From positions 512,001-576,000 of the forward strand of contig CAWCBP010000001.1 of the NCBI GenBank assembly GCA_963793865.1: a DNA stretch of 64,000 nt, read 5' to 3'. The notes under the pieces were generated by a model that saw only the letters and a program-made list of their open reading frames with translations, did no database searches and had not been told where the DNA came from. A program made the position numbers and the translations under genes. Below are positions 490 to 23,647 of the stretch, piece after piece; positions within the stretch are counted from its first letter, which is position 1; the number at the start of each line of letters is the position of its first letter. The DNA is from an uncultured delta proteobacterium. GTDB lineage: Bacteria; Desulfobacterota; WTBG01.

Positions 490-660
490 GTGATTCGCAT
501 TGACAGGGAAAAGTGTGTTGGGTGCGGCGGGTGCGTGGATCTCTGCCCCCGGACGGCCATCTGTTTTGTCAAGGACCGCGCATTCGTGGATGTGCAGCTC
601 TGCCTGGAGTGCCGGACATGCGTGAAAGTCTGCCCGGTGAAGGCGCCGTCAGAGGTGTAG
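490..660 (+). CDS. 2x[4Fe-4S] ferredoxin, 56 aa (missed by the ORF track)
   Basis: GTG start after AAGGAG; MIRIDREKCVGCGGCVDLCPRTAICFVKDRAFVDVQLCLECRTCVKVCPVKAPSEV with two CxxCxxCxxxCP motifs. Confidence 0.9.
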   Translation: MIRIDREKCVGCGGCVDLCPRTAICFVKDRAFVDVQLCLECRTCVKVCPVKAPSEV

Positions 661-727
661 GTTTGCGGTCACGGCGATTATGAACATGGTTCATGGTTAG
701 TGCAGGTAAACTTTTTGCAAAGGAGAT

Positions 728-1015
728 GTGATTTTGGAATCGACTGCGGGATTTCAGAAAAAGATGATCAGCTGCTCGTTGCTTGATCAGGGCCGGGGCA
801 TGCCATTTCGGCCGGGAGACGCGCGGGAGTGGACGCCGGAGTGGGACAAGGACAAGTGCATCCGCTGCGGGCTCTGTTTTGTGTACTGTCCCGACGGCGC
901 GGTGTTCCGCAATCAGGAGGGTTATTTTGAAGCTGATACCGACAAGTGCAAGGGCTGCGGCATATGCCACCGGGAATGCTGGTTCGGGGCCATCAGCATG
1001 TTCAAGGAGGAATGA
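728..1015 (+). CDS. 2-oxoacid:ferredoxin oxidoreductase delta-subunit-like ferredoxin (PorD-like)
   Basis: AGGAG RBS; PEWDKDKCIRCGLCFVYCPD...CKGCGICHREC is typical of PorD. Confidence 0.85.
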   Translation: MILESTAGFQKKMISCSLLDQGRGMPFRPGDAREWTPEWDKDKCIRCGLCFVYCPDGAVFRNQEGYFEADTDKCKGCGICHRECWFGAISMFKEE

Positions 1016-1017
1016 CA

Positions 1018-1743
1018 ATGGATAAGTACAGTCTCTATGTTTCTAATTTCCTGCCTTGCAAGGAATACTTCAGCCCTGAGCTGAACCAGGCATGCCCGGG
1101 CTGCGGGCTGGCGCTGGCCATCCGCCAGACATACAAGGCCCTGGGCATGAGCATTGAAAAGGGGGCCTGGGCGTCAGCAGAGCATGGAAAGGCCGGCGCT
1201 GCCGGTTCCGGGCTCTTTGGAACGGGCGCAACCGATGTCACCTTTTTGACCATTCCCAAGGCCCGGGGGAAGCTGGTGATCTGCTGCGATAACGAAGCGG
1301 GCGGATCTCTCGCCGACCTGCTTGAGAAACCCATGCCCCAGCTCGCCGCGTCACAGGGTTTCAGCTATGTGGCCACGGCCTGTCCCAGCTATCCCTTTGA
1401 CCTGTACGACAAGATGAAGCGGGCCTTCAAAAGCACTGCCGACGCCTATGTGCACGTGCTCTGTCCCTGCCCGCCGGGCTGGAAGTTTGACGCGGATTTC
1501 ACGGTGAAACTGGGGCGGCTGGCGGTGGAAAGCCGGGCATTCCCCCTGTATGAAGCGGGCGCGGGCGCGTACGGCCTCACGGTGAAGACGGGGAAGCCCA
1601 GGCCGCTTGCCGACTATCTCAAGGCGCAGGGGCGGTTTGAAAAGCTGAGCGAGGGGGAAATGGCCGAGGCGCAGGCATCGGTTGACCGTGCGTATAAACA
1701 TCTGGAAGGCATGATACAGCAGTATCTCGACGCGGTTGCGTAA
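1018..1743 (+). CDS. 2-oxoacid:ferredoxin oxidoreductase beta-subunit-like protein (PorB-like, degenerate TPP motif)
   Basis: ACPGCG, DNEA, YVATACPSYP, HVLCPCPPGW, FPLYE and YLKAQGRF match PorB. The GDG motif reads GTG and the centre is shortened. AGGAGG RBS before ATG 1018. Confidence 0.75.
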   Translation: MDKYSLYVSNFLPCKEYFSPELNQACPGCGLALAIRQTYKALGMSIEKGAWASAEHGKAGAAGSGLFGTGATDVTFLTIPKARGKLVICCDNEAGGSLADLLEKPMPQLAASQGFSYVATACPSYPFDLYDKMKRAFKSTADAYVHVLCPCPPGWKFDADFTVKLGRLAVESRAFPLYEAGAGAYGLTVKTGKPRPLADYLKAQGRFEKLSEGEMAEAQASVDRAYKHLEGMIQQYLDAVA

Positions 1744-1786
1744 GATGAGTGTCCCGGCTTCGGGATATCGTTGAAAGGAGCAGGTA

Positions 1787-2536
1787 ATGTCTAAGAGTAC
1801 GAGGATGAAACCAGGCGCAAAGAAGAGCTCACAAAAAAAGGCTTCGTCTCCTGCGACTGCTCAAGCGCCCCAGGCTGCGGCCCCGGGCTCATGGGCGGGC
1901 AGCAGCAAGGCCATGTTTGAGCTCATGATCAAGGAGGTGCCGGAATCGCTGCAGGATGTGTTCCGGGTGAAACTGATGGATATACTCGGGCAGAAGGCGA
2001 AGGGCGGTGCCTACCAGGAAGCCCAGGTTGTGGAGATCGTCAATGAAATCGTGCCCGAGCCGTTCAAGTCCAACATCCTCAAGGGTTTCGCCACCATGGG
2101 GGGTGTTGACATAAGCCTGGTTGAAGGCATCGTGGCTTCATATCCCGGCGGCCAGGAATCCGTCCCCGCCATACTTCACGCCCTGAAGGCCAAGTTCGGC
2201 CATGTGCCGGAAGAGGCGCTGCGGGTGGTGAGCCAGAAGAAAAATGTGTTCATGAGCACCCTCTACCGGCTGGTGACCTCATTCACGGCGTTCCCAACCG
2301 ATTTGCCCAGGAAATACACGGTGAGCGTCTGTGACGGCACGGGGTGCCACCTCAAGGGCAGCGCTTCAATGCTGAAAAAGCTTGAGGAGAAAGCGGCCTC
2401 GCCGGACGCGGACATTAACTTGGAAAAGGTGAGATGCCTGGGCTGCTGCGACCTTTCGCCCGCGGTGCTGGTGAACGGTGAAATGTACAGCGGTGATGAT
2501 GCCCATGCCAAGATTTCAGAAATGTTAGGTGAATGA
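1787..2536 (+). CDS. NuoE/HydC-like [2Fe-2S] subunit with extra N-terminal helical domain
   Basis: VCDGTGCHLKGS...VRCLGCCDLSPAVLVNG at the C-terminus; about 105 aa N-terminal extension. Confidence 0.85.
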   Translation: MSKSTRMKPGAKKSSQKKASSPATAQAPQAAAPGSWAGSSKAMFELMIKEVPESLQDVFRVKLMDILGQKAKGGAYQEAQVVEIVNEIVPEPFKSNILKGFATMGGVDISLVEGIVASYPGGQESVPAILHALKAKFGHVPEEALRVVSQKKNVFMSTLYRLVTSFTAFPTDLPRKYTVSVCDGTGCHLKGSASMLKKLEEKAASPDADINLEKVRCLGCCDLSPAVLVNGEMYSGDDAHAKISEMLGE

Positions 2537-2549
2537 TAAAGGGGAGTCT

Positions 2550-4260
2550 ATGAAACAGGATAAACCGCTTGACCTGAACGCGATACAAAAGAAGGGGCTC
2601 AGCATGCTGGCGCCGGCGCGTGCCCGGATTACCGTCGGCATGGCAACCTGCGGATTGGCCAAGGGCGCGGGGAAGATTTTTGAAGCCCTGAAGTATGAGA
2701 TCAAGAAGCAGAAAGCCAAGGCTGACCTGGTGGTGGTGGGGTGCAACGGCCTTTGCTATGCCGAACCCATTGTTGAAGTGATCTGCCCGGGAAAGCCGCG
2801 CATCACCTATGGCCGGGTGAGCGTGGAACGGGTTCCTGACCTGGTGGCCTCGGTGGCAAAGGGAGGCGTGGTCAAGGATCTGGCCCTGATGAGGATGGAC
2901 CGGTTAACCGCGGAAGGCGGTGCATCGATCAAATATGCCGGGGCGAAGGTCCCCAAGGACGCGGCCGCGCTCAAAGAATGCGGGAAGCTTGATTTTTTCA
3001 AAAAGCAGATGAAGCTCATCAGCAAAAACGCCGGAACGGTCAGCCCGGAGCAGGTTGAGGAATACTGCGCGCTGGGCGGCTACCAGGCGCTGCTGAAAGC
3101 CGTTACCTCCATGAGCCCGGATGAGGTCATCAGGGAAGTAACCGTGTCCAAGCTCCGCGGCCGGGGCGGCGCCGGATTCCCGGCGGGCATTAAGCTGCAG
3201 GCATGCCGTCAGGCGGCCGGGGATGCCAAGTACATTGTCGCCAACGGCAGCGAAGGCGATCCCGAAATCGGCATGCACCGGAGCTTTCTGGAATCGGATC
3301 CCCACGCGGTCATAGAGGGGATGGCCATCGCCGGCTACGCGGTGGGTGCATCGGAAGGCTACATTTATTTGAATGACCGGTACCAGGTGGCCCACGAGCG
3401 GCTCACCCGGGCCATCGAGGGGGCGGAAGCCCTGGGACTTATCGGGAGCAATATAGCGGGTTCGGGATTTTCTTTCTCCCTGCGGGTGAAGCGGGGAGGA
3501 GGCGCGTACGTGTGCGGCGAGGAAACGGCGCTGCTCAACGCGCTGGAAGGCTCGTTCGGCGAGCCGAGACCGCGGCCCCCGTATCCCGCGGAGAGCGGGC
3601 TTTTCAACAAGCCCACCGTGGTCAACAATCTCGAGACCCTGGCAACCATTCCCGCCATTATCGCCGGGGGCGGGGAAGCGGTACGCGGGCATCGGCACGC
3701 CGGGCAGCACCGGCACGAAAATCGTGGCCCTGTCCGGGCATGTGGCCAGGAGCTGCTGGGTGGAGGTCCCGCTGGGCATGGAGATCGGGGAGATCATTGA
3801 AACCTTCGGCGGCGGCGCCGCCAACGGAAAGAAGATAAAAGGTTTCCAGGCGGGAGGCCCGTCAGGCGGCATTCTGCCGGCCAAACTGCTGAAGATCAAG
3901 CTTGACTACGATCGCCTGGCCAAGGAAGGAAGCCTGCTGGGTTCGGGCGGGCTGGTGGTCATGGATGAGGATACTGACCTGCTGGAGATGGCAAAATTTT
4001 TCACCGACTTTTTTGCCGACGAGTCCTGTGGAAAGTGCAGCATCTGCAGGGAAGGCACCAAGCGGCTCCAGCAGATCATCACTGATGTGATGGAAGGGCA
4101 GGGAACAAGCGAGCACATCGCCCTGGTCAAGCGCCTGGCATCAGCACTGTCGGATACCGGCGCCTGCGCCCTGGGCAAAACCGCAGCGGTGCCCTTTATA
4201 TCGGTGCTCAACCATTTCCCGCAGGTGATCGAAGGCAAACTGCTCAGGAAGAAAGCGTAA
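2550..4260 (+). CDS. NuoF/HydB-like FMN/NAD(P)H-binding subunit (frameshift near 3681)
   Basis: N-terminal thioredoxin-like Fe-S domain (TCG...GCNGLCYAEP), LRGRGGAGFP, GAYVCGEETAL, GGPSGG, ESCGKCSICREG...CALG. ORFs 2529-3800 and 3724-4260 join on removing one base (EA|YAGIGTPGSTGTK). Confidence 0.88.
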
Positions 4261-4300
4261 GGTCATAAACGGCGTAGCGATACGAGAGAGGATGATATTT

Positions 4301-5239
4301 ATGGTGAGCTTAAAGATAAATGGAAGGAAGATAAAGGCAGCGGAGGGCATGACCATCCTTCAGGCGGCGCGGGTCAATGACATTGAGATACCCACGCTGT
4401 GTTCGAATGACGCGCTCAAGCCCTATGGCGCCTGCCGCCTCTGCGTGGTGGAGATCGGGAAAAACGGGAGGGTGACGGTGGACACATCCTGCACCTACCC
4501 GGTGAGCGACGGGCTGGAGGTGCAAACCAACACCCCCCGCATCAGGGAAGCGCGCAAGATGATTCTCGAGCTCCATCTGGCGCGCTGCCCCAACGTGCAG
4601 ATTGTCCAGGAGCTGGCCGCGGAGTACGGGGTGACCGAAAGCGCCCAGCAGATGGGAAAGGATAATGAGTACTGCATACTCTGCGGGCTGTGCGTCCGCG
4701 CCTGCAACGACGTGGTCAAGGCGGGCGCCATCCAGTTTGCGGGACGCGGCCCGGGCAAGATGGTGGACTCGCCCTTCAGCAAGACCGCGGATGACTGCAT
4801 TGCCTGCGGCTCATGCGCCTTTATCTGTCCCACCGGCATCATCAAGAAAAATGACCTGTTTTCCACCGCGCTCTGCACGCCGGACGGATGCGATCAAACC
4901 GGCCCGCAGCGCGAGATCCTGAACTGGAAGGTGGAGCACAAACTGAAGTGCTGCAAAAAGTGCGGCAATCCCTACGCGCCGGAGCCGCATCTGGAAAAGG
5001 TGAAGCGGGAAAAGAATCTGCCCAATGAATTTTTTGACATCTGCCCCTCGTGCCGGCAGTATCCGGTGGTTGACCCGGACAAGTGCCTGGGCTGCGGCGG
5101 CTGCATGGAGAACTGCCCCTGCGGCGCGCTGGAGCTCGAGGACAAGGGCGGTTATGATAAAAAGGCGCAGCTCTATCCGCAGAACTGCACCGCCTGCCAC
5201 AGCTGCGAGCTCATCTGTCCCATGCAGGCCATCAGCTAG
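4301..5239 (+). CDS. NuoG/HydA N-terminal-like Fe-S subunit with extra C-terminal ferredoxin domain; no H-cluster or Mo/W domain
   Basis: IPTLC...GACRLCVVE...SC [2Fe-2S]; CILCGLCVRAC and CIACGSCAFICP; CKKC...CPSC; CLGCGGCMENCP and CTACHSCELICP. Confidence 0.85.
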   Translation: MVSLKINGRKIKAAEGMTILQAARVNDIEIPTLCSNDALKPYGACRLCVVEIGKNGRVTVDTSCTYPVSDGLEVQTNTPRIREARKMILELHLARCPNVQIVQELAAEYGVTESAQQMGKDNEYCILCGLCVRACNDVVKAGAIQFAGRGPGKMVDSPFSKTADDCIACGSCAFICPTGIIKKNDLFSTALCTPDGCDQTGPQREILNWKVEHKLKCCKKCGNPYAPEPHLEKVKREKNLPNEFFDICPSCRQYPVVDPDKCLGCGGCMENCPCGALELEDKGGYDKKAQLYPQNCTACHSCELICPMQAIS

Positions 5240-5288
5240 AGAGTTGCCCCAATTCTGAATGACTATGTAAGCATCCAAGGAGGAAGTA

Positions 5289-6587
5289 ATGACGGTTTAC
5301 GATCTTGCCATTGTGGGCGCCGGTCCCGGAGGTGTGCATGCTGCCAAGTGGGCGGCCAAGAAGGGGCTCAAGACGATTCTCATTGAGAAGCGCAAAGACA
5401 TCTCCAAAATCACCCGTTACTGCAGCGAGCATTTGATACTCGATGAAGGCTATAACGGGGATACGGTTTTGGTGGATCCTAAAAAAGGCACCATCACCTC
5501 GACGGCGAACGGGTGGGTGGTTGACTATAAAGGCGGTTTGTTCCCCTGCATTGATAAATGGTACTACTCTCCCAAGGGCAGGGCCATCCACTTCGCCTGG
5601 CCTGACCGGCGGCCGTATGCCTACAAGTACGACAAGGGCTTTCTGCTGGGGAGCCTGCTCGAGGAATGCCTGGCGCTGGGGGTCACCTTCCAAAATGAAA
5701 CCAGCGGCTATGACGCGGTCGACAGCGCCCAGGGGGTCGAGATCAAGTGCGTGAGCAGGGGAAAGAAGGAGAAGGTGAAGGCGAAAAAGCTCATCATCGC
5801 CGACGGGTGCAACACCCGCCTGGGGCAGGCAATGGGTTTCAACGCCAGCCGCGGTTACATGGGCTTTGCCCTGTGCATGGCCAGCTACATGTCCGGCGTG
5901 AAGAAATACAACCCTGAAGAATGGGTGCTCTGGTACGGCAGGTGCTACGGCTCAAATCTCGCCCCCATCATCGGCACCGGGCCGGCCGGCCATTTTGAGG
6001 ACTGGGCGGATGTGATCAACCTCGGCAGCCCCCGGGACCTGCCGGTGGAGGCATTTGGCCGGTTCACCAAAAACAGTCCCATAGCCGACCGGTTTGCAAA
6101 CGCCAAGGTTGAAGAGCGGTACTGCTGTTCGGTCAAGGCCTTTACCCCCATTGCCCGTCCCTATAAAAGTAATACTATAATTATAGGAGATTCTGCCGCG
6201 TTTGTTGAAGTGCAGGGTCAGGGGGCTCTGAGCTGCGGTTATAAGGCCGCGGAGGCGGTTGCCAGGGAACTCAAGGGTGAAAAGGGGTTCGAGGAATACG
6301 CCGACTGGTGGCTTAAATCGTTTGAGTTCAATGACAAGGGGATGATGCAGGTGCAGCAGGGATATGCCTTTGTGCCCACCTATACCGATGACGAGCTTGA
6401 CTACCTTTTCGGCCTGTGTGAGGACGTGCTCCTGGACGGGAGCTTCAGCCAGTACAAGTCATCCCGGATGATATGGGACGCAATCCTGCGCGACCCGAAG
6501 AAAATTGAGCGGGAACACCCCGCCACCTATGCAAAAATCAAGAGCGTCCGCAGCAGCACCCTTGAAAGCAGCCTCAAGGACGGCTAA
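5289..6587 (+). CDS. geranylgeranyl reductase/FixC-family NAD(P)/FAD-dependent oxidoreductase
   Basis: YDLAIVGAGPGG Rossmann motif, LIIADG, IIIGDSAAF; AGGAGG RBS. Confidence 0.85.
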   Translation: MTVYDLAIVGAGPGGVHAAKWAAKKGLKTILIEKRKDISKITRYCSEHLILDEGYNGDTVLVDPKKGTITSTANGWVVDYKGGLFPCIDKWYYSPKGRAIHFAWPDRRPYAYKYDKGFLLGSLLEECLALGVTFQNETSGYDAVDSAQGVEIKCVSRGKKEKVKAKKLIIADGCNTRLGQAMGFNASRGYMGFALCMASYMSGVKKYNPEEWVLWYGRCYGSNLAPIIGTGPAGHFEDWADVINLGSPRDLPVEAFGRFTKNSPIADRFANAKVEERYCCSVKAFTPIARPYKSNTIIIGDSAAFVEVQGQGALSCGYKAAEAVARELKGEKGFEEYADWWLKSFEFNDKGMMQVQQGYAFVPTYTDDELDYLFGLCEDVLLDGSFSQYKSSRMIWDAILRDPKKIEREHPATYAKIKSVRSSTLESSLKDG

Positions 6588-8150: not shown

Positions 8151-8918
8151 ATGGCAAAGGTAGCATGGAATGAGATGACTGCGTTCGCAAAAGTTATTGT
8201 GGAGGATTACAAGCTGTTTGAAGGACTGGAGCTGGTGCCGCTTGAGACCTACCAGGGCATGGACACCAGGCCGGCCTGGGAGTTTAAAACCCCCATGGCC
8301 ACCGGCTTCTACAAGCCGTACCTCATCAAGGGAAGCGACCGGATCGAGAAGATCACCATCGGGGAGCTGCATTACATGGGACGGGCCAAGTACTGCGCCC
8401 TGAACATGACCGCGAGCAACGATTACGACCTGCCCATCTATGCCTGCGAGTTTGACGAGACGGCGCCGCGGGTGGGCGTGACCATGGATTTAATGCCCAC
8501 GGTGGACATCGCCCGGCACGAGGAGTACCTGCAAAAATACTACCGGGAGATAGCGCCGCTGTGGCGGAAGTACCGAACCATACCCGGATTTACCCTTGAA
8601 GGCCGCTGTCTGGTGCAGAGAAGGTACGCGCCCTGGCCCTGGGCGCGCGAGTCGCTCTCTCCCTTCAGCCTTGACGGGCGGGTGGAGGAGAAGGAGGACC
8701 GGGTGAAGCTGATGGAGGCGGTGGTGGCCTATGCCCGGGTGTGGCTTAACCTGCTGAAGAAGGCGGAGCCCATCCGGGATGAGGGGTACCGGCAGGAGAT
8801 GCTGCGCAGAAAAAGCAAAACCCAGAAATATTACCGCGATCTTGACCCGGGCGGAGAGGTGATGAAAAAGATTTTCGGCGCGGAAAAAAGCCACCTCTTC
8901 GTGAGCCTTGTCTTTTAA
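8151..8918 (+). CDS. ferredoxin-dependent bilin reductase / RCC reductase family protein, copy 1
   Basis: YDLPIYACEF...MDLMP...EEYLQKYY and C-terminal YYRDLDPGGEVMKKIFGAEKSHLFVSLVF resemble PebA/PebB/PcyA/HY2/RCCR motifs as recalled; 255 aa fits the family. Confidence 0.72.
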   Translation: MAKVAWNEMTAFAKVIVEDYKLFEGLELVPLETYQGMDTRPAWEFKTPMATGFYKPYLIKGSDRIEKITIGELHYMGRAKYCALNMTASNDYDLPIYACEFDETAPRVGVTMDLMPTVDIARHEEYLQKYYREIAPLWRKYRTIPGFTLEGRCLVQRRYAPWPWARESLSPFSLDGRVEEKEDRVKLMEAVVAYARVWLNLLKKAEPIRDEGYRQEMLRRKSKTQKYYRDLDPGGEVMKKIFGAEKSHLFVSLVF

Positions 8919-8931
8919 AGGAGGTAGAGAA

Positions 8932-9660
8932 ATGGATGCAGGCGTAAAATGGACACCCTATCTGGAAAAAATGAAGGGATTGATTGATTCGCTGCAGCCC
9001 ACCGCGCTTCAGGAGTGGAAGGGGCAGAATCTTGCGCCCGCCCTGGAGTTTGCCAGGGGCCAAGCGCGGGGAGGGTTCAGCGCATACCGCGCTGACAAGC
9101 TGGAAAAAATAGGCATCGGCTCATTTGTCCATGCCGGCAACAGGCACTTTGCCTTCTGCAGCATCATGCCCGGGGAAGCCTATGACCTGCCCCTGTTTCT
9201 CTCGCGTCTCGATGAGGGGCCGGAGGAGGTCATTTTCCTGGTTGATATCATCCCCGCGGTGGACAGCCTGGTGGATGAGGAATACCGCAAGAAGTATATC
9301 GAGTCGGTGCAGCCCCTCTGGGACCGGTTTGCCGCCCTGCCCGGCATCTGTCCCGAGGAAAGCGATGTCATCCGCTCACTCGCCTCCATCATTTACACCG
9401 CGGCCCGGGTTCCCATCGAGAAGGAGGGGATGCGCCTGGCGGCCCTTGCCCCGCACACTGAATATCTCAAGAGCTACCTCGCGTTTCTTCCCGAGGCGGT
9501 GCCGGTTACCGATGAGGCGAAGAAAAAGGAGCTGGCGGCAAAACGCGCGGCGCTGCGCGCAACCCTGCGTGCCCATTTTTTCAAGGAAATGCTGCCGGGT
9601 CCGGCACGGGAAGAACTGGGTGATGGCATGATCGAACTGCTTAATGCTGTCTATTTTTAG
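8932..9660 (+). CDS. ferredoxin-dependent bilin reductase / RCC reductase-like protein, copy 2 (divergent)
   Basis: Paralogue of copy 1 (EKIGIG, YDLPLF, VDIIPAVD...EEYRKKY...PLW...LPG, AVPV.DE); VIRSLAS recalls the RCCR VRS..SP segment; AGGAGG RBS. Confidence 0.65.
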   Translation: MDAGVKWTPYLEKMKGLIDSLQPTALQEWKGQNLAPALEFARGQARGGFSAYRADKLEKIGIGSFVHAGNRHFAFCSIMPGEAYDLPLFLSRLDEGPEEVIFLVDIIPAVDSLVDEEYRKKYIESVQPLWDRFAALPGICPEESDVIRSLASIIYTAARVPIEKEGMRLAALAPHTEYLKSYLAFLPEAVPVTDEAKKKELAAKRAALRATLRAHFFKEMLPGPAREELGDGMIELLNAVYF

Positions 9661-9673
9661 GGAGGGATGAGAC

Positions 9674-10084
9674 ATGTCGGTTATGGAAATGCTTGCGGCA
9701 GGAGCCGATTTTACCAACGCGGATGAAACGGCGCAGGGGATGATGGCTGATTTCAGCGACCACAAGGTGGGCATGAAGCTTGACGCGGACGAGTTCACCC
9801 AGGTGGTAAAAGACGGCAAGCTCTATCTGGAGCAGGGGATCCGCGAGGACTGCCACGTGGTGCTGAAGCTGAAAACGGCCGATCTCTGCAGCGCCATCGA
9901 CAACACCTTCGATCTCATGGAAATCAAGGACAAGGGGGAGCTGTTGAAGGGCGATATGACCGATCCCAACGTTCCCGTCCACCTCATGGCCACCTTTCCC
10001 TTTTTCGATGCCATGGTCCGGCTGTATGAATCCGATCCCCGCTTTAAAAAAATGGTTGATGAGGTTAAGTCTACTTTGGGATGA
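9674..10084 (+). CDS. SCP2 sterol/lipid-binding-domain-like protein
   Basis: 136 aa; VVKDGKLYLEQG...DCHVVLKL...KGELLKGD resembles the SCP2 fold pattern. Confidence 0.5.
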   Translation: MSVMEMLAAGADFTNADETAQGMMADFSDHKVGMKLDADEFTQVVKDGKLYLEQGIREDCHVVLKLKTADLCSAIDNTFDLMEIKDKGELLKGDMTDPNVPVHLMATFPFFDAMVRLYESDPRFKKMVDEVKSTLG

Positions 10085-10096
10085 GGTGCCCTGCAT

Positions 10097-10303
10097 ATGG
10101 TGAAACATCTGGTCGATCTGGAAAAGTGCCGCGGCTGCGGGCAGTGCCTTGAGCAGTGCGGACTGGAACTGTGGGTTCTGGTGGAAACACCGGACGGAAA
10201 GAAAAAAGCCAAGGCAATCGAAGAGGCGGGCATGATCTGCCACTGCTGTCTTTCCTGCCAGGACGCCTGCCCGGAAAAAGCGATCACCATTCTTGACGAG
10301 TAA
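10097..10303 (+). CDS. ferredoxin (2x[4Fe-4S] type)
   Basis: CRGCGQCLEQC and CHCCLSCQDACP; GAGG RBS. Confidence 0.88.
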   Translation: MVKHLVDLEKCRGCGQCLEQCGLELWVLVETPDGKKKAKAIEEAGMICHCCLSCQDACPEKAITILDE

Positions 10304-10380: not shown

Positions 10381-11729
10381 ATGCCCAGGGAATATGATCT
10401 GGTGGTGGTCGGCGCGGGGCCTGCCGGTTTGATGGCCGCCAAAACAGCAGCCGAACACGGGCTGAGCGTGGCCCTGATCGAGCGGAAAGAGCACATTACT
10501 GATATCAACCGTGCCTGCAGCATGATGGTGGTGACCCTGACCGGGAAATATCTGGAGGAGCGGGTACGCTTAAACAGCCGGGACAGGAAGCTTTGCTTCC
10601 CGGGATACGGTTTTACCGTCAACTATGACGGCCCCCACCGTGACTTTTACACCTGGGCCATATACTCCCACCGGGGCAACAAAATTCAGCTCGGCAACTA
10701 TGAAGAGAACGAGCGCAAGGGCGAGAGCGGCAGGGTGAGCGCGACGTACGATAAGGGGGCGCTGCTGCGCTGCCTCCTGGAGGAGGCCCGCGCCCTGAAG
10801 GTTGATGTCTACAACCCGTATAATGTAATCCGGACCGATCTGCAGGGAGGCAGGGTGACGGTTTTCACCCGCGAGGGAAGATCCTTCAGGGGCACCTTCG
10901 TCATCGCCGCCGACGGTCGCGCCTCCAGAATAGCCCACACCCTGGGCTGCAACCGGGATCGGAAGTATTTCGGCACTGCGGTGACCCTGGGGTATGAAAT
11001 GGTGGGGGTAAAGCCGCCGGAAAAATTTGCCCTCTTCCAGATATTTCTCGACGAGACACCTTCCAAGCGGGTGTGGATGACGCCGCGGACGACGAAGGAC
11101 ACCTACTTCGTCATGACCACCTCGCTCACCCCCGGCGCAGACCTCGCGGGCGCCTTTGAGCGGTTTTCGAAAAAGGGTTTTTTCGCGCTCCTGGTTCGAA
11201 AAGGCAGAGATAAAGCGCACCCTGACTTCCGCGGGCAACGCGCTCTCACACATAGTCGATCCCTACAAGGACCAGGTGCTGCTTGTCTCCGACGCGGTGT
11301 GGTGCCAGGAGGCGGAGATGACCGGGGCGGTCATCAGCGGCTGGAAGGCGGCCAGCTGCCGTCAGCTTCGCCCTGGCCGATGGAAAGATATCGCGGGAAG
11401 GGGTTTCATCCTACCTCCGCTGGTGGAAAGAAGAGGTGCTGGATAAATACGATTACCGGAGCATGATGCGCAATGCCGTGCTTCCCCTCCGGCTCACCCC
11501 TGACGAGATTGACTTCGTGCTGAGCCTGGTTAAAAAATCACTGCCCAGCATCCTTGATCCTTATGAGACCCCCAAGCTGGTCGGCGGCGCCCTGGCGGAG
11601 ATAATGCCGGCCGTTGCCAAACAGCGGCCCGCCATTCATCAGAAGCTTGCAGGGATGCGCAATGTGCCGCTGGCCGCCGTTTTTGACGGATGCATCAGGG
11701 CGGGCTTCCCCATGCAGGCCCGCGGCTAG
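10381..11729 (+). CDS. geranylgeranyl reductase/FixC-family flavoprotein, paralogue of 5289-6587 (frameshifts near 11188 and 11356)
   Basis: YDLVVVGAGPAG, VIAADG; the fragments give a collinear continuation DPYKDQVLLVSDA...YLRWWKEE...EIDFVLSL. Confidence 0.8.
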
Positions 11730-11825: not shown

Positions 11826-13557
11826 ATGATGCGCAATGAGCATGACTCCTCCGCTGAAAAGAAAAAAATAATTCCGGCACGGCTGCCGGAGGGAATGTAC
11901 CAGGCATTGGAAGCATGTCGTTGGCAAGGAGTGGATTTCCCGCGACCGGGCGGTTCTGGAAACCTACAGCAAGCTCTCGCTCGACGCGGAAGGGTTTTTA
12001 AAGAAGCACGCCCGGAACGGCTCAAGCATTCCCGCCTGCGTGGTGCTGCCGGGCGGCACCGATGAAGTGCGGTCCGTGGTGAGGATCGCCCGGCGATACC
12101 GGGTTCCCGTCATACCCTTCACCAACGGCCAGATGATGAGCGCCCCCACCTTTCCCGTTCCCATGCTCTGCATTCACCTGAGCCGGATGAACCGGGTGCT
12201 GGCCATCGATGAGCAGCTCATGACGGCCACGCTTGAACCCTATGCGGACTACGGGCAGCTTCTGGCCGAGGCTGCAAAAGTGGGGCTCTGGAATGGAGGG
12301 ACGCCGCTGGCAACCACCCTGTGCAAGCTTTCGTCCCAGGTGGCCTTTGCGGGCATCTGGCAGACCAGCAAGAAATACGGCCTGCTGGACAGAAACATCG
12401 TGGACATAAAGCTGGTGCTGCCCACGGGTGAAATCATGAGCACCGGTTCCCCCGCGGTTGCGGGCGTTGACCGCGTATGGGAGAGCGGACCGGGCCCTGA
12501 CCTCACCGGGGTGGTGCGCGCCAGCGCCGGGACCACCGGCATCATTACCGAGGTGACCGTCAAGCTGCACACCTGGGTCGGCGGGGAGCTGATGCCGGAA
12601 CCGCGGGCGGGAAGGCCCTGCATTCCCTGCTATGCCGATGAGCGCTACGACCATGCCCCCGCGCCGCCCCGGCACCGCATCCACTGGATAGAGTTTCCCG
12701 ACTGCGAATCCGAAATCAGGGCATACCGGGCCATCGCCCACGCGGGCATCGGCATCGGGCTCAATGCCTCGGGGGTGTATTCCTCCTATTACTGCTCCCC
12801 AACCCAGAAAATGACCGAGGAGCGGGCGACGGGCAATTTTTTCCCCGCCTTCAACCTCTATGTCATCTGCGCGGGCATCGTATCAGAGGGCCAGCTGGCC
12901 TATGAGGAAAAGGTGCTCAGGGAGATAGCGGAAGAGCAGGGCGGCAGGTTTCTCTCCCGCGACCATAAGCCGGAGGTGCTGCAGGCGCTCGCCCCGTGGA
13001 ACCTGGACTGCATCAGGAATGTCTGCGGCTATCGCATGAACCGGCGCATGTACGCGGGCGGGAGCCTTCCCGCGGGTCCGCCCGAGGTGGCCCTCTATCA
13101 CAGCCGGCTCTGGCGTGAAGTGCTCGAGCGCTTCGGTGAGACGCACGTCACCGACCGCGGAGGGGCGGAAACGACCCCCTTTGTGTACGGCATAGAGCCG
13201 GCGGGGCGCTACACCCTCTCGGAGACGGATATCTACCCGGATCCGATGGACCCTCATTCGCTGGAACAATGCGTCGCCATTACCATGTACAGCGCGGTTA
13301 AAAATGGCGCCGAGCGGCACTGCGCGCCCTTCGGCTTCGGCGGTCCGGCTGAACCATTGGTCACCTTTTTCCCCGAGCAGGGTCCCAATGTCCATCTCCT
13401 GCTGAGAAAATTAAGAAAGGTCTTTGACCCACAGGGCATCTGCAGCCCCGGCAGGCAGGTGCTTACCGAGGAAGAGCTCAAGGAATATCCGGCGGAGGCG
13501 GTTGCCAGACTGAATGAACTGCGGAAGTTTTTTAACATGGGCACGATTGAAAGGTAA
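11826..13557 (+). CDS. FAD-binding oxidoreductase (PCMH/VAO/GlcD-like), paralogue of 15348-17060 (frameshift near 11916)
   Basis: N-terminus YQALEA|VVGKEWISRDRAVLETYS matches the paralogue; VLPGGTDEV, VLPTGEI, GPDL, GTTGIITE, FDPQGICSPGR. Confidence 0.82.
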
Positions 13558-13696
13558 ATCCGAAGCACGAAATCCCTGAGATATGGGATATGCGATTTGT
13601 GATATGGGCTGAAAAATATTTTTTAATCCCAAATCACAGATCTCACATCACACATCAGTATGTAGTTTCGGATTTCGATATTCGGATTTCGGATTT
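13556..13696. repeat. nested inverted arrays of heptamer repeats
   Basis: Outer AAATCCG-type units (13556-13576) mirror CGGATTT units (13669-13696); inner TGNGATW units (13577-13611) mirror NATCNCA units (13625-13657) around AAAAATATTTTT. Confidence 0.75.
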
Positions 13697-13844
13697 GAGT
13701 ATCGGGGGTTGCCCAGCCTGCTGTTGAATTACGTGTTACGGGACTCACATGACCAAGCCTGAAAACTGCCTCCTATTAGTGCTTGACTAATGAGGGCTGA
13801 TTCACTATAGATACCCAATCGGAATACATCAAGGAGAACCGTAT

Positions 13845-15317
13845 ATGGCGCTGACACGGAAACAGCTGGTGGATATTTTTGGCGATAAGCGGGTTATGGA
13901 CGATGCCGCAACGCTTGAGGCATATTCCCATGATCAGTCCTTTGCGCCGAAACGCATGCCTGATTTTGTGGTGTTCCCCGGGACGGTCGAGGAAGTGCAG
14001 CGGGTGGTGAGGCTGGCCAATGAGACCCGGACCCCGCTCATTCCCTACAGCTCGGGATTGAATTTTCATGGCGCGGCCCTCCCCGACCACGGCGGGATAA
14101 TCGTCAACCTTTCGCGCATGAACAGGATCATTCAGATCGATGAAGAGAACTGGTCCGCGGTAATTGAACCGGGGGTTACCTATGCGCAGCTCCAGGCCGC
14201 CCTGATGGAAAAGGGATTCCGGGTGATGATTCCATTCGGCGTGCCCCCCGGGCGTTCCGTGCTTACCAGCTTCCTGGAACGGGATCCGGTCATGGCGGCG
14301 CCCAGCTTTGAATCGGGCAATTTTCTCATCATGGACACCGAGATGGTGCTTCCCGACGGCGAGCTGTTTAAAACCGGCACATGGTGCGCGGGGGGCGCTC
14401 CGGGAGGACCGCTGGGCCCGGTGAGAAACGTCATCTTCCGCCTCTGGACCGGCGCTCAGGGCACACTCGGCATCATGACCAAGATGAATGTCAAGATTGA
14501 GCCTTTTATCAAGGAACGGAAGATGTATTTCTTAAGCTTCAACGCGCTGGCTGATGCACGTGAGCCTTTGAAAAGGATACAGCGGAGGGAAATCGGCCTG
14601 GAGTGCTTTCTCCTGAACCGGTTTAACCTGGCTTCCCTCGTGAGCCATGAGTGGGCGGTGCCGGATACATTCCCCGCCGCACCCAAACCTTCCGAGAGCT
14701 TTGAACGATACCGGGGCATTCTCCCGGCCTGGGTGCTGGCACTCTGTATTATCGGTGCGCCCAGACATCCCGAGGAAAAGATTGCCTATGAGACAGAGGC
14801 ATTACAAGAGGTGTGTCACGGTCTTAATGTCGAAGTTAAAGAAACCATTCCCCAGGTGAGCGGGTTGAGCCGGCTGATGCTCAACGAGATTCTTTATCCC
14901 TGGGGTATTCTCAAGAAATTCAATTACCGGGGATCGGTGCACAGCCTGAGCTTTAAATGCTCGCTGGGGTCGCTGGCGGAGATGGAAGAGATTGTGCGGA
15001 ACGAGTGCGAAGCGGCCGGTTACAGCGTATCTGCTTTCGGCGGTTACCTGCTCCCGCTGGAACGGGGCAGGGCGGTGCACTGTGAGTTTGACCTCCACTG
15101 TGACCTGAAGAATGATCCGGAAGCCCGGAACGTTAAGAACCTCTGGACCGGGACCGCGCAGACACTGATCAACCACGGGGCATATTTTGACCGTCCTTAC
15201 GGGCCGTGGGCGGAAATGATCTATGGGCGGGCGGGTGAGTATACCACCAAGCTTCGGCAGATCAAGCAGGAGCTTGATCCCAACGGCATTCTCAACCCCG
15301 GAAAATTGTGCTTCTAA
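13845..15317 (+). CDS. FAD-binding oxidoreductase (PCMH/VAO/GlcD-like)
   Basis: PDFVVFPGTVEEV, NLSRMNRII, IEPGVTY, VLPDGE, GAQGTLGIMT, LDPNGILNPGK. Confidence 0.88.
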   Translation: MALTRKQLVDIFGDKRVMDDAATLEAYSHDQSFAPKRMPDFVVFPGTVEEVQRVVRLANETRTPLIPYSSGLNFHGAALPDHGGIIVNLSRMNRIIQIDEENWSAVIEPGVTYAQLQAALMEKGFRVMIPFGVPPGRSVLTSFLERDPVMAAPSFESGNFLIMDTEMVLPDGELFKTGTWCAGGAPGGPLGPVRNVIFRLWTGAQGTLGIMTKMNVKIEPFIKERKMYFLSFNALADAREPLKRIQRREIGLECFLLNRFNLASLVSHEWAVPDTFPAAPKPSESFERYRGILPAWVLALCIIGAPRHPEEKIAYETEALQEVCHGLNVEVKETIPQVSGLSRLMLNEILYPWGILKKFNYRGSVHSLSFKCSLGSLAEMEEIVRNECEAAGYSVSAFGGYLLPLERGRAVHCEFDLHCDLKNDPEARNVKNLWTGTAQTLINHGAYFDRPYGPWAEMIYGRAGEYTTKLRQIKQELDPNGILNPGKLCF

Positions 15318-15347
15318 ATTCTGAAGGCTTGTAAGAAAGGATGATCT

Positions 15348-17060
15348 ATGTCAGAGCCCAAAGCAAAGGTAATCCCCAACAGGGTTTCACGGGAAGTCTT
15401 CCAGGCGCTGCAGGATGTGGTGGGCCCCGAGTGGATTTCGGAAGACCGTGCGGTTATTGAAACCTACAGCCGCTTTTCGGTGGACACCGGCGGCGTTTTG
15501 AGAAAGCACCAGCGGGACGCCACGATGATCCCCGCATGCATTGTCCTGCCGGGATCGACCGAAGAGGTGCAGGCGATCATGCGCATCGCCAACCGCTTCG
15601 GGGTTCAGGTCATTCCCTTTACCAACGGGATGATCGCTTTCAACGGGCCGACCACACCGCTTCCCACTATTTGTGTTCACGTGAGCAGGCTGAACCGCGT
15701 GCATATAGACGAGGAAAATCTCACCGCCACCCTGGAGGCTTATGGTGACTACGGACAGCTGCAGGCGGAAGCGATGAAGCGGGGTCTCTGGAACGGAGGA
15801 ACACCCCTCGCCACCACCCTCTGCAAATTATCCTCCCAGTCGGCATTCGCCGGCATCTGGCAGACCGATCTTAAGTACGGAACGCTCACCAGGAACATCG
15901 TGAGCATCAAGGTGGTGCTTCCTACCGGCGATATCCTGATAACCGGGTCGGACACCGTTTCAGGCACCAACTGTCTCTGGGAATACGGGCCCGGCCCGGA
16001 CCTGCTGAGCCTGGTGAGAGGCGGAGCGGGCACGACCGGCATTATCACCGAAATAAAAGTCAAGCTTCATTCCTGGACGGGGGGTGTCGAGCTGCCTGAA
16101 CCGCCTGCCGGCCGCCCCTCCATTCCCGACTACCATGATCCCCGATACGACACCGCCCCCCCTCCTGACCGGGTAAAGCTCCTCTGGGTTGAATTTCCCG
16201 ACTACGATTCGGAGGTCAAGGCGCTCCACGCGGTTGCCCAGTCGGGCATCGGCATGGGGCTTAATGCCACCGGGGTCTACAACTCATACTACTGCTCCCA
16301 GACCCAGGCCATGACCATGGAGAGGATTGCCGACAAGTTTTTCCCCCCATTCAACCTCTATGTGATCCTCTACGGCGTTACCTCGAAGGCGCAGATGGAG
16401 TACGAGGAGAAGGTGTTTCGCGAGATCATGGCGGAGCACAACGCCACTTTCCTCACCCCGGAGCACAAGGGGGATGTGCTGTACGCGCTCGCGCCCTGGA
16501 ACCTGGACTGCATCAGGCATGTGACCGGCTTCCGGATGAACCGCTTTTTTTACGGGGGTTCCGTCGTCCCCGGGGGATTGCTCAAGGACACCGCCTATAA
16601 AACAAGGGAAATCTGGGGGCGTACCGTTAACACCATGGGGGAAACCTTCATTACCGACCGGGGCGGCATCGATGACACGCCCTTTCTTTACGCAATCGAA
16701 CGGGGAAGCAGACACTGGCTGTCGGAGGCGGATGTGTATCCTGATCCGCTTGACCCGGAGAAGCTCAACCGGGCGCGGGGTCTCACCGTTGCCGCGGTGG
16801 CTGATTTTGTCTCGCAGAAATACCCTGCCATCGGAATCGGCGTGGCCATTGAACCGCTGACCACTTTTTTCCCCGAACACGGGCCCAATGTGCACCTGCT
16901 CTTCAGAAAACTGAGAAGGATTTTTGATCCCGGCAGCATTTGCGCGCCCGGCAGGCAGGTGTTCAGCGAGGAAGAGATGAAGGCTTTGCCGCAGGAGATG
17001 ATTGACGGCATTAACGGACTGCGCGCCCATTACAAAATGCCTCCGGTGGAGAGGAAGTAG
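15348..17060 (+). CDS. FAD-binding oxidoreductase (PCMH/VAO/GlcD-like)
   Basis: PACIVLPGSTEEV, VLPTGDIL, GPGPDL, GTTGIITE, FDPGSICAPGR. Confidence 0.88.
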   Translation: MSEPKAKVIPNRVSREVFQALQDVVGPEWISEDRAVIETYSRFSVDTGGVLRKHQRDATMIPACIVLPGSTEEVQAIMRIANRFGVQVIPFTNGMIAFNGPTTPLPTICVHVSRLNRVHIDEENLTATLEAYGDYGQLQAEAMKRGLWNGGTPLATTLCKLSSQSAFAGIWQTDLKYGTLTRNIVSIKVVLPTGDILITGSDTVSGTNCLWEYGPGPDLLSLVRGGAGTTGIITEIKVKLHSWTGGVELPEPPAGRPSIPDYHDPRYDTAPPPDRVKLLWVEFPDYDSEVKALHAVAQSGIGMGLNATGVYNSYYCSQTQAMTMERIADKFFPPFNLYVILYGVTSKAQMEYEEKVFREIMAEHNATFLTPEHKGDVLYALAPWNLDCIRHVTGFRMNRFFYGGSVVPGGLLKDTAYKTREIWGRTVNTMGETFITDRGGIDDTPFLYAIERGSRHWLSEADVYPDPLDPEKLNRARGLTVAAVADFVSQKYPAIGIGVAIEPLTTFFPEHGPNVHLLFRKLRRIFDPGSICAPGRQVFSEEEMKALPQEMIDGINGLRAHYKMPPVERK

Positions 17061-17334: not shown

Positions 17335-17910
17335 GTGGAAATAGATATAGGGTCTAAATTATTACGGTTGAGGAAGGAGCAGGGACAATCCCTACGGGCA
17401 TTGTCGACGCTGAGCGGCATCTCTGCTAATGCCATCAGCCTTATAGAGAGAAATAAAATCTCACCTACCATTTCCACCCTGACAAAATTGATTGTCACCC
17501 TCAATTCCAATCTTACCTTTTTATTCGAAAATCACAATACCAAGAATGCCATTTATTTGAAGCATAACAGCAATCCGCAGATAGTATCAAGGAACTCCAA
17601 GGTAAAGCTTGCAAGTCTCGGTAACGGTTTGCCCAATCAGAAAATAGAACCGGTAATCGCTACCTTTGATAAGGGAGCTAAAAGTGGAAGCAAAACCATT
17701 ACCCATCAGGGGAATGAGCTGGTTTATTGCCTTGAGGGCAGGATTAGATTTGAAGTTGATGGGCAGCACTATCTCCTGGAACCCGGTGACAGCCTTTTCT
17801 TTAACGGTACAAAACCCCACTGCTGGGAGAATGCAAGCAAAGGCAAATCAAGGGTATTGGCGGTCATGGCAACCAAACATTGGCTGCAAAAGGAGACTGC
17901 TGCCGGATAA
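17335..17910 (+). CDS. XRE-family HTH-cupin transcriptional regulator
   Basis: IGSKLLRLRKEQGQSLRALS...SLIERNKISPTISTL HTH plus HQGNELVYCLEG...GDSLFF...PHCWEN cupin. Confidence 0.9.
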   Translation: MEIDIGSKLLRLRKEQGQSLRALSTLSGISANAISLIERNKISPTISTLTKLIVTLNSNLTFLFENHNTKNAIYLKHNSNPQIVSRNSKVKLASLGNGLPNQKIEPVIATFDKGAKSGSKTITHQGNELVYCLEGRIRFEVDGQHYLLEPGDSLFFNGTKPHCWENASKGKSRVLAVMATKHWLQKETAAG

Positions 17911-18113
17911 ACGCGACTGCACCGGTCATGCGCTCTTGCCTGAAAGGGCCTTAAACGCATGGGCTGTGTACATCGCGGGCCGGCAATTCCATTCTGCGTG
18001 ACCAATAAAACCTTGCAAGGGAACTTCTTGATACGCAACGATGCAATATTACTTTTAATCATTGCAGATAACCAAAGCCAGTAATCCAGTTTATACTATC
18101 CGGAGGATCCAGT

Positions 18114-19239
18114 ATGATTAACAATTATAAATTTTTTGTTATACTAGTCGTCTGCGCTTTGTTACCTTCAACACTCGGCTGCAAGCAGAAGAAGTCAACC
18201 TTTAAGGTTCCTCACATACCTTCCATTATCGGGGAAAATCTTACCAAGGTGGTCGCGTTTGATGAAGACAACATCCTCATAGCCGGTGACTACAGCTATC
18301 TGGCCACTACCGGCCAGGGCAGCCAGATCAGGTATGAAAACAGCAAAAAGGACTTCTGGACGGTTCAGAACACCGGCCTGTCGGGAGAGCTTATCTGCGA
18401 TATCAGTTTCCCCGACCGGCAGAACGGCTGGGCGGTGGGCATTCTGGGCAACGTCATACACACCTCGGACGGGGGTAAGACCTGGGAGCGGCAGGCAAGC
18501 GGCACCAAAAGGCATCTGTTTACCGTCCACTTTCCCGACAGCAACAACGGCTGGGCGGCGGGCGATGTGATGACCGTCATCCATACCGCTGACGGCGGAA
18601 AGACCTGGGAGCCCCAAACCGTGCAGCAGAGCACCGATGAGAATGTCTTTGCGGCGGAGGTAATTTACAACGGGGTATTCTTTCATGATGCCAATGAAGG
18701 GTGGCTGGTCGGGGAGTTCGGTTCCATCTATCACACCATGGATGGCGGCAAGAACTGGGAAAACCGTCCCTGTGAGGCTTTGGCGCCAAAGATGGCTGAG
18801 GATGAATGGGAGCTGCCGAAGCTGACCCTCTTTGACATCCGTTTTGCCGACAGGCAGCGGGGCTTCATTTTAGGTGTTGACGGGACCCTGCTTAAAACAG
18901 ACGATGGCGGCAAGGAGTGGAAAAAAATTGACAGCGCCTCCACCAACTCCCTCTTTTCCATCGCCATGGTAGGAGACAAGTGCTGGGCGGTGGGTGACCG
19001 GGGGGCCTACATCATGTCCGGCGACGGCGGAAACACCTGGACCAAGCAATGATGACGCCATTCACACCAAGGGCTGGCTTACGTCGGTTGCGTTTGTGAA
19101 TGAAACCGTGGGCTGGGTGGTTGGGAAGTCAGGAGCGGTCTTTAAAACCATTGACGGGGGCAAGACATTTGAATGGCTCTCGGGTGTCTCCTATGACTGG
19201 CCGGAATTTAAACCGCCCAAGGAGCTGGTTGGCGAGTAG
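18114..19239 (+). CDS. YCF48-related (BNR/Asp-box) lipoprotein (frameshift near 19049)
   Basis: Lipobox TLGC; repeated GWAVG...T.DGGKTW; the continuation WVVGKSG...TIDGGKTF lies in the next frame. Confidence 0.88.
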
Positions 19240-19300
19240 TTACTGTACCGTTACCGGTTAGGGTATTGTTGCCTGATTATTATTTAATAAGGGGAAGCTC

Positions 19301-21674: not shown

Positions 21675-21841
21675 TTGTTCAGCAAATGTACCGAAGTTAA
21701 TCGTGATCTTGATATCCATTGCTGAGGTCGCCGATGCTTATTAGTAAAGGGGCGGGAATAAGATTGATCCATTGATTCCTTGCATCACTATGTTCTCAAA
21801 CGGTGATTGCAGCTTGAGCGCTTTAATTTTTTAATCATTTA

Positions 21842-21870
21842 TTGACAAGAATTGGTAATGCTGGTAAAAA
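21842..21870 (+). promoter_or_regulatory. putative sigma70 promoter for DUF1302/DUF1329
   Basis: TTGACA-N17-TAAAAA with an extended -10 TG. Confidence 0.45.
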
Positions 21871-21926
21871 AGTCACAATGCTTAAAATAATTATATAAAC
21901 CTTTCTCAATGGACAAGGGGGGTATC

Positions 21927-23612: not shown

Positions 23613-23647
23613 TAACCGGCAGCATTGAGGGAAGGGAGGAAAGGAAT

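Follow-up and report, generated by a model that had tools for sequence, protein, structure and literature searches.

A tandem pair of bilin-reductase relatives in a conserved ferredoxin-containing cassette of an uncultured Desulfobacterota lineage

Introduction

Ferredoxin-dependent bilin reductases (FDBRs), red chlorophyll catabolite reductase (RCCR) and the oxygen-dependent coproporphyrinogen oxidase HemF share one fold, and Rockwell et al. argued that all known enzymes of this fold are ultimately oxygen-dependent and arose after oxygenic photosynthesis (PMC10151467). In the same work, heterotrophs are shown to have active pre-PcyA enzymes, and the RCCR outgroup holds sequences from Ca. Schekmanbacteria that are uncharacterised. 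Pre-PcyA genes adjoin those for heme oxygenase (HO), BBAG globins or B12-binding proteins; in Pre-1 the D256 position is typically occupied by Ser (PMC10151467, PMC13446030), while single changes let Pre-3 bind cyclic tetrapyrroles, and the active site of HemF lies on the other side of the sheet (PMC13446030). Here we analysed a window of 64,000 nucleotides from an uncultured delta proteobacterium (contig CAWCBP010000001.1, positions 512,001 to 576,000), in which two adjacent genes, FDBR1 and FDBR2, head a small cassette. Both genes are FDBR relatives, probably one working enzyme and one helper, and the pair may be part of an undescribed oxygen-free processing of chlorophyll- or haem-derived pigments.

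Bacteriochlorophyll genes without a reaction centre have been described in Ca. Anaeropigmentia (bioRxiv 10.1101/2021.03.22.436540). The genome of the window (G000; 3.85 Mb, 98.6% complete) is similar in its bchF, chlLNB/bchXYZ-like, chlP-like and bchE-like genes, ComA, the Wood-Ljungdahl pathway and the lack of a detectable reaction centre. Judged by this matching gene content the lineage is probably Ca. Anaeropigmentia, with the difference that cbb3 and bd oxidases are reported there and were not found in G000. The available text of that paper holds 0 words starting with “bilin” or “biliverdin”, and its Discussion proposes a relic of phototrophy, not catabolism. A literature search, with most subscription journals outside its coverage, found no paper on the operon, on the FDBR expansion or on a catabolic role. 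FDBR relatives of heterotrophs are thus already known, while the operon is undescribed and possibly an entry to a new pathway. We know of no enzymes identified for the turnover of chlorophyll, haem and bilins in anoxic sediment beyond ChuW/ChuY and bilirubin reductase of the gut.

Results and discussion

Two divergent members of the bilin reductase family

FDBR1 (P0001; 8151..8918, + strand; 255 amino acids, aa) and FDBR2 (P0002; 8932..9660, + strand; 242 aa) lie 13 bp apart, each behind a ribosome-binding-like site. With 27% identity across 195 aa (E 8e-24), the two are paralogues, as proposed in an earlier note made from the sequence alone. The YDLP and D..P...EEY..KY segments listed there were found in both copies, and YDLP and EY..KY occur together in FDBR1 and FDBR2 only among the 3617 predicted proteins of the genome. 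The C-terminal DP/FG.E segment was confirmed in copy 1 only, where its spacing is Y...DP and the exact FG.E....F...F pattern was unmatched. FDBR1 matched Pfam Fe_bilin_red (PF05996) above the cut-off (E 7.7e-14, 52.3 bits vs 31), and the family assignment by Pfam therefore held for copy 1, whereas FDBR2 stayed below it (E 4.4e-5, 23.7 bits). FDBR1 also matched RCC_reductase (PF06405) below the cut-off (E 2e-4, 20.9 bits vs 24.9), and neither protein matched HemF (PF01218) at E 0.1. Homologues in the protein collection numbered 99 for FDBR1 and 151 for FDBR2, which rules out artefactual or chance open reading frames (ORFs); the few named ones are hypothetical proteins.

The AlphaFold (AF2) model of FDBR1 (92 alignment rows; predicted local distance difference test, pLDDT, 93) contains the alpha/beta/alpha sandwich of the family (Z 21-24; root-mean-square deviation, rmsd, 2.1-2.8; 222-230 residues), while FDBR2 was predicted only as part of a complex. 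The best fold match of the FDBR1 model was to gtPebB and tomato HY2 (Z 24.3), ahead of PcyA (22.4), PebA (21.8), RCCR (21.2), PebS (16.7) and HemF (16.5); no chain from beyond the FDBR/RCCR/HemF group scored higher than Z 5.5, and Foldseek agreed. Neither contrary outcome named beforehand, a missing match to the bilin-reductase sandwich or a better match to HemF, occurred, and HemF, which has the same fold, was ruled out as the better match. PebB/HY2 (gtPEBB 6QWQ, tomato HY2 6KMD/6KME) was also the best match to FDBR1 by sequence in the PDB (E 1.6e-8), superposes on its model with an rmsd of 2.1-2.3 over 224-228 aligned residues and shares the Asp of the DP motif; FDBR1 differs from it by an identity of 18-19%, a Glu at the D105 site, a replaced R..K pair and the lack of an accompanying heme oxygenase. 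RCCR (2ZXK) aligned over 230 residues; its differences are the sub-threshold Pfam match of FDBR1 and its role in plants, where it works after an oxygenase. We take RCCR to use the acids E154 and D291 and to be a homodimer, which would resemble the Glu and Asp pair of FDBR1 and its predicted dimeric state.

Active-site columns were taken from an alignment with annotated PebA, PebB, PcyA and PebS, in which PebS A77/N88/D105/D206 align with PcyA E/H/D/D, the same as in Table 2 of PMC13446030. PebS D105 and D206 correspond to FDBR1 E100 and D232; E100 is present in all 91 FDBR1 orthologues and D232 in 79, with Ser in 12. At the positions of the PcyA triad Glu76/His88/Asp105, FDBR1 has G71 (adjoining an invariant E72), A83 and E100, so that the triad is absent. 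FDBR2 carries R92 at the D105 site, where Arg occupies 83/121 rows (commonest five residues R, Q, L, K and Y), and a C-terminal DP is found in 3/121. In all 11 neighbour pairs checked, copy 1 keeps the E and the DP, and copy 2 is without the DP. Because both catalytic acids are gone, FDBR2 would be a non-catalytic partner, and the two copies are not equivalent. Several paralogues miss one or both acids.

In an IQ-TREE quick tree of 53 rows (16 paralogues of G000, 17 known-type FDBRs and 20 relatives; unrooted, and without RCCR, pre-PcyA, PcyX or Ca. Schekmanbacteria sequences), the 17 known FDBRs formed one side of a branch (SH-like approximate likelihood ratio test, SH-aLRT, 96), and FDBR1 and FDBR2 fell in a 25-row group without known FDBRs (SH-aLRT 96). 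A 154-row FastTree agreed, with weak support (0.62). Approximately unbiased (AU) tests, whose groups were named after the tree was seen, rejected a grouping of the FDBR1 clade with PebB/HY2 (p 1e-51) or with all known FDBRs (p 2e-4); FDBR1 and FDBR2 as sister clades were neither shown nor rejected (p-AU 0.31, IQ-TREE). FDBR1 scored 25-27 bits against the NCBIfam PebA/PebS and PebB/HY2 models (cut-offs 263-327) and had no PcyA NCBIfam match at E 0.001. On these trees and profiles, both copies fall outside the groups formed by the tested sequences of PcyA, PebA/PebS and PebB/HY2. The proposed divergent branch of the family in an anaerobic non-phototroph is thus supported in fold, family relation and host, while the description of the family as one mainly of oxygenic phototrophs needs correction in the light of the heterotroph relatives already published (PMC10151467).

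Similar to the window pair, the pre-PcyA and Ca. Schekmanbacteria sequences are FDBR relatives in non-phototrophs, and the Glu at the D105 position is shared by Pre-1 (PMC10151467, PMC13446030). The pair differs in the lack of HO, in its operon with SCP2, ferredoxin and GGR-like genes (13 loci) and in the 17 copies of its genome. The window proteins may belong to the outgroup of PMC10151467. An origin of the known FDBRs from within the radiation seen here is not claimed, the trees being unrooted and without RCCR, pre-PcyA and PcyX. A sequence bridge between FDBR-like and HemF-like proteins is not claimed either (one profile match at E 1e-5; profile-profile probability only 11.7%).

A predicted heterodimer

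Complex prediction of FDBR1 with FDBR2 scored 0.89 in three runs, compared to 0.00 for the best of three controls; the runs had at least 78% of contacts in common and a partner pLDDT of at least 91. The score mark is reached by 116/157 solved complexes and 2/215 mismatched pairs, counts that are only approximate for this pair, for which custom alignments were used. The predicted interface is pseudo-symmetric, and its residues D119, R166, S170 and R220, and D111, L113, D145 and R148, are invariant or nearly so in their respective families. Overall, the prediction supports a heterodimer and falls short of showing one, because homodimers lay outside the controls, close cousins are able to pass the test and RCCR is itself a solved dimer. 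FDBRs are described as monomers (PMC13446030), and a heterodimer of a catalytic subunit and a pseudoenzyme would, if true, set the pair apart from PebB/HY2 and be new for the family.

The cassette and its conservation

The pair is followed by genes for an SCP2-fold protein, a 2[4Fe-4S] ferredoxin and a flavoprotein resembling geranylgeranyl reductase (GGR). The SCP2 (sterol-carrier)-fold protein (9674..10084, + strand, 136 aa) has no Pfam match; its AF2 model has pLDDT 93, the top 10 Foldseek rows were SCP2 proteins or the alkylsulfatase SdsA1, and structural comparison gave VIA at Z 10.0 (rmsd 2.9, 113 aligned). It is presumed to carry a hydrophobic substrate. The ferredoxin (10097..10303, + strand, 68 aa), already noted downstream of the pair, matched Fer4 above the cut-off and has two four-cysteine motifs (Cys 11/14/17/21 and 48/51/54/58); it is the presumed electron donor. 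The GGR-like FAD oxidoreductase (10381..11729, + strand; GG-red-SF match below cut-off) is split by two single-base insertions at about 11187 and 11357, and is one intact 448-aa frame in 4/4 relatives checked. Both frameshifts are probably assembly errors, because contigs of DNA run X1 do not contain the extra bases and the relatives are intact. Split genes also occur at 2529-4260 and 19301-21674 of the window, and these other splits may be assembly errors as well.

Among 13 related loci, FDBR2 and the SCP2 gene follow FDBR1 in 12/12 that are long enough, and the ferredoxin gene follows the SCP2 gene in 10/10. A GGR-like gene (at least 63% identity) lies within about 2 kb in 8/12. An FDBR1 orthologue is present in 26 of the 42 genomes of the class (one split), a set that overlaps with the 13 loci, and a gene of the 136-aa type stands directly downstream in 22 of these 26. 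The orthologues are 50-98% conserved, unlike what would be expected of a decaying relic.

From the adjacent ferredoxin gene, and from a paralogue fused to a dicluster ferredoxin, we infer ferredoxin dependence, for which both are indirect pointers. In the proposed mechanism, the co-encoded ferredoxin would give single electrons to FDBR1/FDBR2, and FDBR1 would hold a conjugated tetrapyrrole-type substrate whose radical intermediates are protonated by E100 and D232, leading to a two-electron reduction of a double bond or methine bridge. FDBR2 would be the non-catalytic member of the heterodimer, the SCP2 protein would carry the hydrophobic substrate, and the GGR-like flavoprotein might perform an adjoining side-chain reduction or electron transfer. 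The small soluble operon with its own ferredoxin is amenable to a standard anaerobic bilin reductase assay.

A corrinoid methyltransferase module (B12-binding, URO-D-like, MtrH-like, RACo) lies directly downstream of the cassette in two related loci (L021:10614-15452, L025:4524-9197) and also beside HemF-like and GGR-like genes in G000 (C11:137758-142450). Directly upstream of FDBR1, three relatives encode an apparently secreted and so far unannotated protein of 580-660 aa (L024:5210-6958, L026:2664-4655, L023:6281-7923) with no Pfam match at E 0.01.

Expansion of the family in one class

G000 gave 14 Pfam Fe_bilin_red matches, 11 of them over the cut-off, and an iterated profile search raised this to 17 FDBR-like genes (16 intact and one split). 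Across the class, 32/42 genomes have 6-22 FDBR matches each. In a phylum sample of 401 genomes, with at most seven candidates scored per genome, 13 genomes passed the cut-off, all of the class, and 0/386 others did, one giving a weak match. Fifteen DNA runs, which come from 10 studies of freshwater, sediment, wetland and soil, contained 39-64% of the sampled sequence words. Actinomycetota were the commonest atlas look-alikes of FDBR1, a lead only, given a recognition of 1676 against the mark of 2300. A lineage in which no heme oxygenase or terminal oxidase was found, yet with this many FDBR-family matches per genome, offers a direct test of the oxygen-link argument.

Some paralogues have unusual architectures. 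One (G000 C1:67141-68142; L039:7145-8143, - strand) is the 333-aa fusion of a dicluster ferredoxin with an FDBR-like domain, and ferredoxin-like N-termini also occur in its relatives P0121, P0127 and P0219. Another (C11:151023-151832; L003) has a hydrophobic N-terminal segment, may be membrane-anchored or periplasmic, and has a flavodoxin gene on one side and a YCF48/MMPL/DUF1302/DUF1329 cluster on the other. A second cassette (C14:239968-252000; L029, L030) comprises FDBR-like, SCP2-like, ferredoxin, FDBR-like and B12 radical SAM genes directly after an N/B pair resembling dark-operative protochlorophyllide or chlorophyllide oxidoreductase (DPOR/COR) and a heavy-metal ATPase.

Tetrapyrrole and energy metabolism of the genome

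The heme oxygenase profile (PF01126) matched in 0/42 class genomes, G000 included, and in 3/14 controls; the absence first seen in the window therefore extends to the whole genome and the class, while a weak HugZ-like match (E 2e-4) leaves room for other oxygenase types. G000 also gave no reaction centre, CobN/Mg-chelatase, COX1 or cytochrome bd terminal oxidase. The cell appears to lack the means of producing its own biliverdin or chlorophyll, and own-pigment synthesis is disfavoured because heme oxygenase, Mg/CobN chelatase and reaction centre are missing from a nearly complete genome. DsrA was found in 0/32 FDBR-positive class genomes and in 5/10 FDBR-negative ones, so that a sulfate-reducing lifestyle is unsupported.

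HemF-like proteins gave five Pfam matches in G000 (about 5-6 divergent genes) and occur in 30/42 class genomes, all FDBR-positive; FDBR1 orthologues adjoin HemF-like genes in two of them (G033 C35 and G036 C3). Two N/B pairs of DPOR/COR-like type, which have PCP_red tails, occur in G000 along with two NifH-like genes; all of them score below their equivalog cut-offs. ComA is present in 28/42 class genomes including G000, and a BchF-family hydratase of G000 (C2:18694-19146), which scores above the Pfam cut-off, lies about 4 kb from an FDBR paralogue. Strong ferrochelatase matches were obtained in 8/10 FDBR-negative and 0/32 FDBR-positive genomes; the latter have weak, often multicopy ferrochelatase-like matches, which are possibly dechelatases, and their haem supply appears unusual, since a canonical-strength ferrochelatase is lacking. 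G000 further encodes 19 GGR-like matches, 24 VAO-like and 29 AOR-like ORFs (fragments included), five DUF1302 genes, several DUF1302/DUF1329/MMPL-type uptake systems and an acetyl-CoA synthase (ACS) motif. Together with the searches that found no DsrA, COX1 or cytochrome bd, this rich set of oxidoreductases points towards catabolism.

Substrate and direction of the reaction

The reading we favour, which we hold at about even confidence, is a ferredoxin-driven reductive step in the anaerobic scavenging or breakdown of imported tetrapyrroles, carried out by a heterodimeric FDBR1/FDBR2 reductase. Bilins, phyllobilins and chlorin or haem derivatives are candidate substrates, and the role would not be synthesis of an own chromophore. 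The cassette would then contribute a single step to an anaerobic pathway, shared across the lineage, by which tetrapyrroles from the environment are imported and then transformed or degraded. More tentatively, and with somewhat less confidence, we propose that the lineage as a whole is an anaerobic tetrapyrrole degrader acting through expanded FDBR-, HemF-, ferrochelatase-, DPOR/COR-, BchF- and ChlP-like families, with the cassette as its heterodimeric reductase; if true, this lifestyle explains the puzzle of bacteriochlorophyll genes without a reaction centre and shows that the FDBR fold functions, in widely diversified forms, in cells that do without oxygen-dependent chemistry.

In favour of this reading, 5/14 FDBR loci have a HemF-like, N/B or BchF gene no more than 10 kb away, compared to 0.61 at random (p 0.0002), a count that does not include the window locus and that rests on gene sets chosen after the data were seen. 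These two limits weigh against breakdown of imported tetrapyrroles, as do the following observations and the limits of the complex controls given above. GGR-like genes were not enriched near FDBR loci (2/14 vs 1.2, p 0.35), and G013, an FDBR-negative genome of an FDBR-positive family, still has 15 GGR-like matches as well as an N/B match, and is also without HemF-like, SCP2 and BchF matches. N/B proteins occur in 22/42 class genomes and BchF above the Pfam cut-off in 11/42 (all FDBR-positive), a limited spread, and the class genomes are kin, not independent samples. No ring-opening or metal-removing enzyme was found with the HutW and SGR profiles: the HutW/ChuW ring opener gave five matches with 0 over the cut-off, and the SGR dechelatase matched in 0/42 class genomes, with no control matching either. 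The G000 paralogues are only 10-43% identical (one pair 79%), so their substrates may have diverged. Finally, where the “R..KDP” segment of PebB/HY2 has Arg and Lys, FDBR1 has Y228 and L231, with a conserved basic pair R220/K221 instead; as we take that Arg and Lys to bind propionate, biliverdin may not bind FDBR1 in the usual way.

The changed segment and the deep divergence of the paralogues would also fit a repurposed fold, in which a ferredoxin-dependent enzyme reduces or dehydrogenates some other flat or hydrophobic compound (N-heteroaromatics, quinones, steroids, terpenoids) in general anaerobic catabolism. The SCP2 partner, the GGR-like, VAO-like and MMPL/DUF1302 nearest neighbours, none of them pigment-specific, and the GGR expansion kept without FDBRs in G013 point the same way. 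However, tetrapyrroles are the substrate of every characterised enzyme of the fold (PMC10151467), FDBR loci tend to lie close to HemF-like, DPOR/COR-like and BchF genes, and BchF is described only from makers of bacteriochlorophyll a (PMC4783071); we consider this explanation unlikely, though it deserves to be kept in mind.

Biosynthesis or remodelling of the cell's own modified tetrapyrrole, whether as a new cofactor, by salvage of a pigment or as what is left of bacteriochlorophyll synthesis, would follow the phototrophic-ancestor reading that Murphy et al. gave of chlLNB, bchXYZ, bchF, bchE and chlP without reaction centres (bioRxiv 10.1101/2021.03.22.436540). G000 has homologues of such genes and ComA, and its unusual haem supply stands beside many multihaem cytochrome ORFs in the window. 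Against this, Mg-chelatase was not found, the orthologues are too well conserved for a relic, and the FDBR-like and HemF-like genes, dispersed along with regulators and uptake systems, are more numerous than one linear synthesis would need, making such a role rather improbable.

The tetrapyrroles might instead be handled and not eaten, with the enzymes serving as an electron sink (as in gut bilirubin reduction), in metal or haem scavenging, or in binding and channelling only. No DsrA or terminal oxidase was found to accept electrons, a NuoEFG/PorD module lies upstream, metal pumps stand beside the second cassette, and some paralogues are without catalytic acids. However, the genes occur together with many enzymes of oxidative type (VAO-like, AOR), and the ACS motif hints that electrons go to the Wood-Ljungdahl pathway instead. 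The OYE-family protein beside paralogue C14:217415 was rejected as a bilirubin reductase, as it reached 382 of 750 bits and has HGHEG in place of HGDR, which we take to be the motif of that enzyme. Overall, this explanation seems to us quite improbable. The OYE genes at C14:218197-220155 and C14:208365-210319, in the vicinity of an FDBR paralogue, have bilirubin reductase and BaiCD as best NCBIfam matches, far below cut-off.

A conventional, pre-PcyA-like synthase turning biliverdin into phytochromobilin (PPhiB), phycocyanobilin (PCB) or phycoerythrobilin (PEB) for photoreceptors or globins is very improbable despite Pfam family membership and the Pre-1-like Glu at the D105 position, given the missing heme oxygenase, the low NCBIfam scores, the position outside the known clades tested and the lack of a recognised HO, BBAG or V4R cluster among the neighbours in 13 loci.

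Flanking genes and further observations

Upstream of the pair lies a module on the + strand (490..6587; Pfam) of ferredoxin, PorD/PorB-like, NuoE/F/G-like and second GGR-like flavoprotein genes, which adjoins the cassette in 4/13 related loci and is a possible source of reduced ferredoxin. Downstream follow three FAD_binding_4 (VAO/GlcD-like) oxidoreductases (12040..17060, + strand; Pfam, NCBIfam), with a homologue near the cassette in 5/13 related loci, and an XRE-cupin regulator with a putative YCF48/MMPL/DUF1302/DUF1329 uptake system (17335..24826, + strand; Pfam), whose DUF1302/DUF1329 labels come from similarity to Pfam-labelled paralogues. An uptake-type cluster directly follows the cassette in related locus L027. 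PNPOx-like neighbours were not accepted as HugZ or F420-dependent reductases, having weak matches only.

A promoter and terminator scan of the window (4 vs 1.7 and 6 vs 4.4 expected) was not used. Transcription was not shown: sediment RNA run X16 touches 30/30 bins of the window at a flat low depth that could be DNA, and RNA runs X19 and X20 cover 7 and 9 of the 30 bins. A 33-bp element at 13665-13697 is a dispersed repeat with different flanks across contigs in all four runs checked. Judged from the translations, ORFs for multihaem cytochromes c, cytochrome b-like proteins, repeat proteins and cytochrome c biogenesis form a large cluster from about 33500 to 62300.

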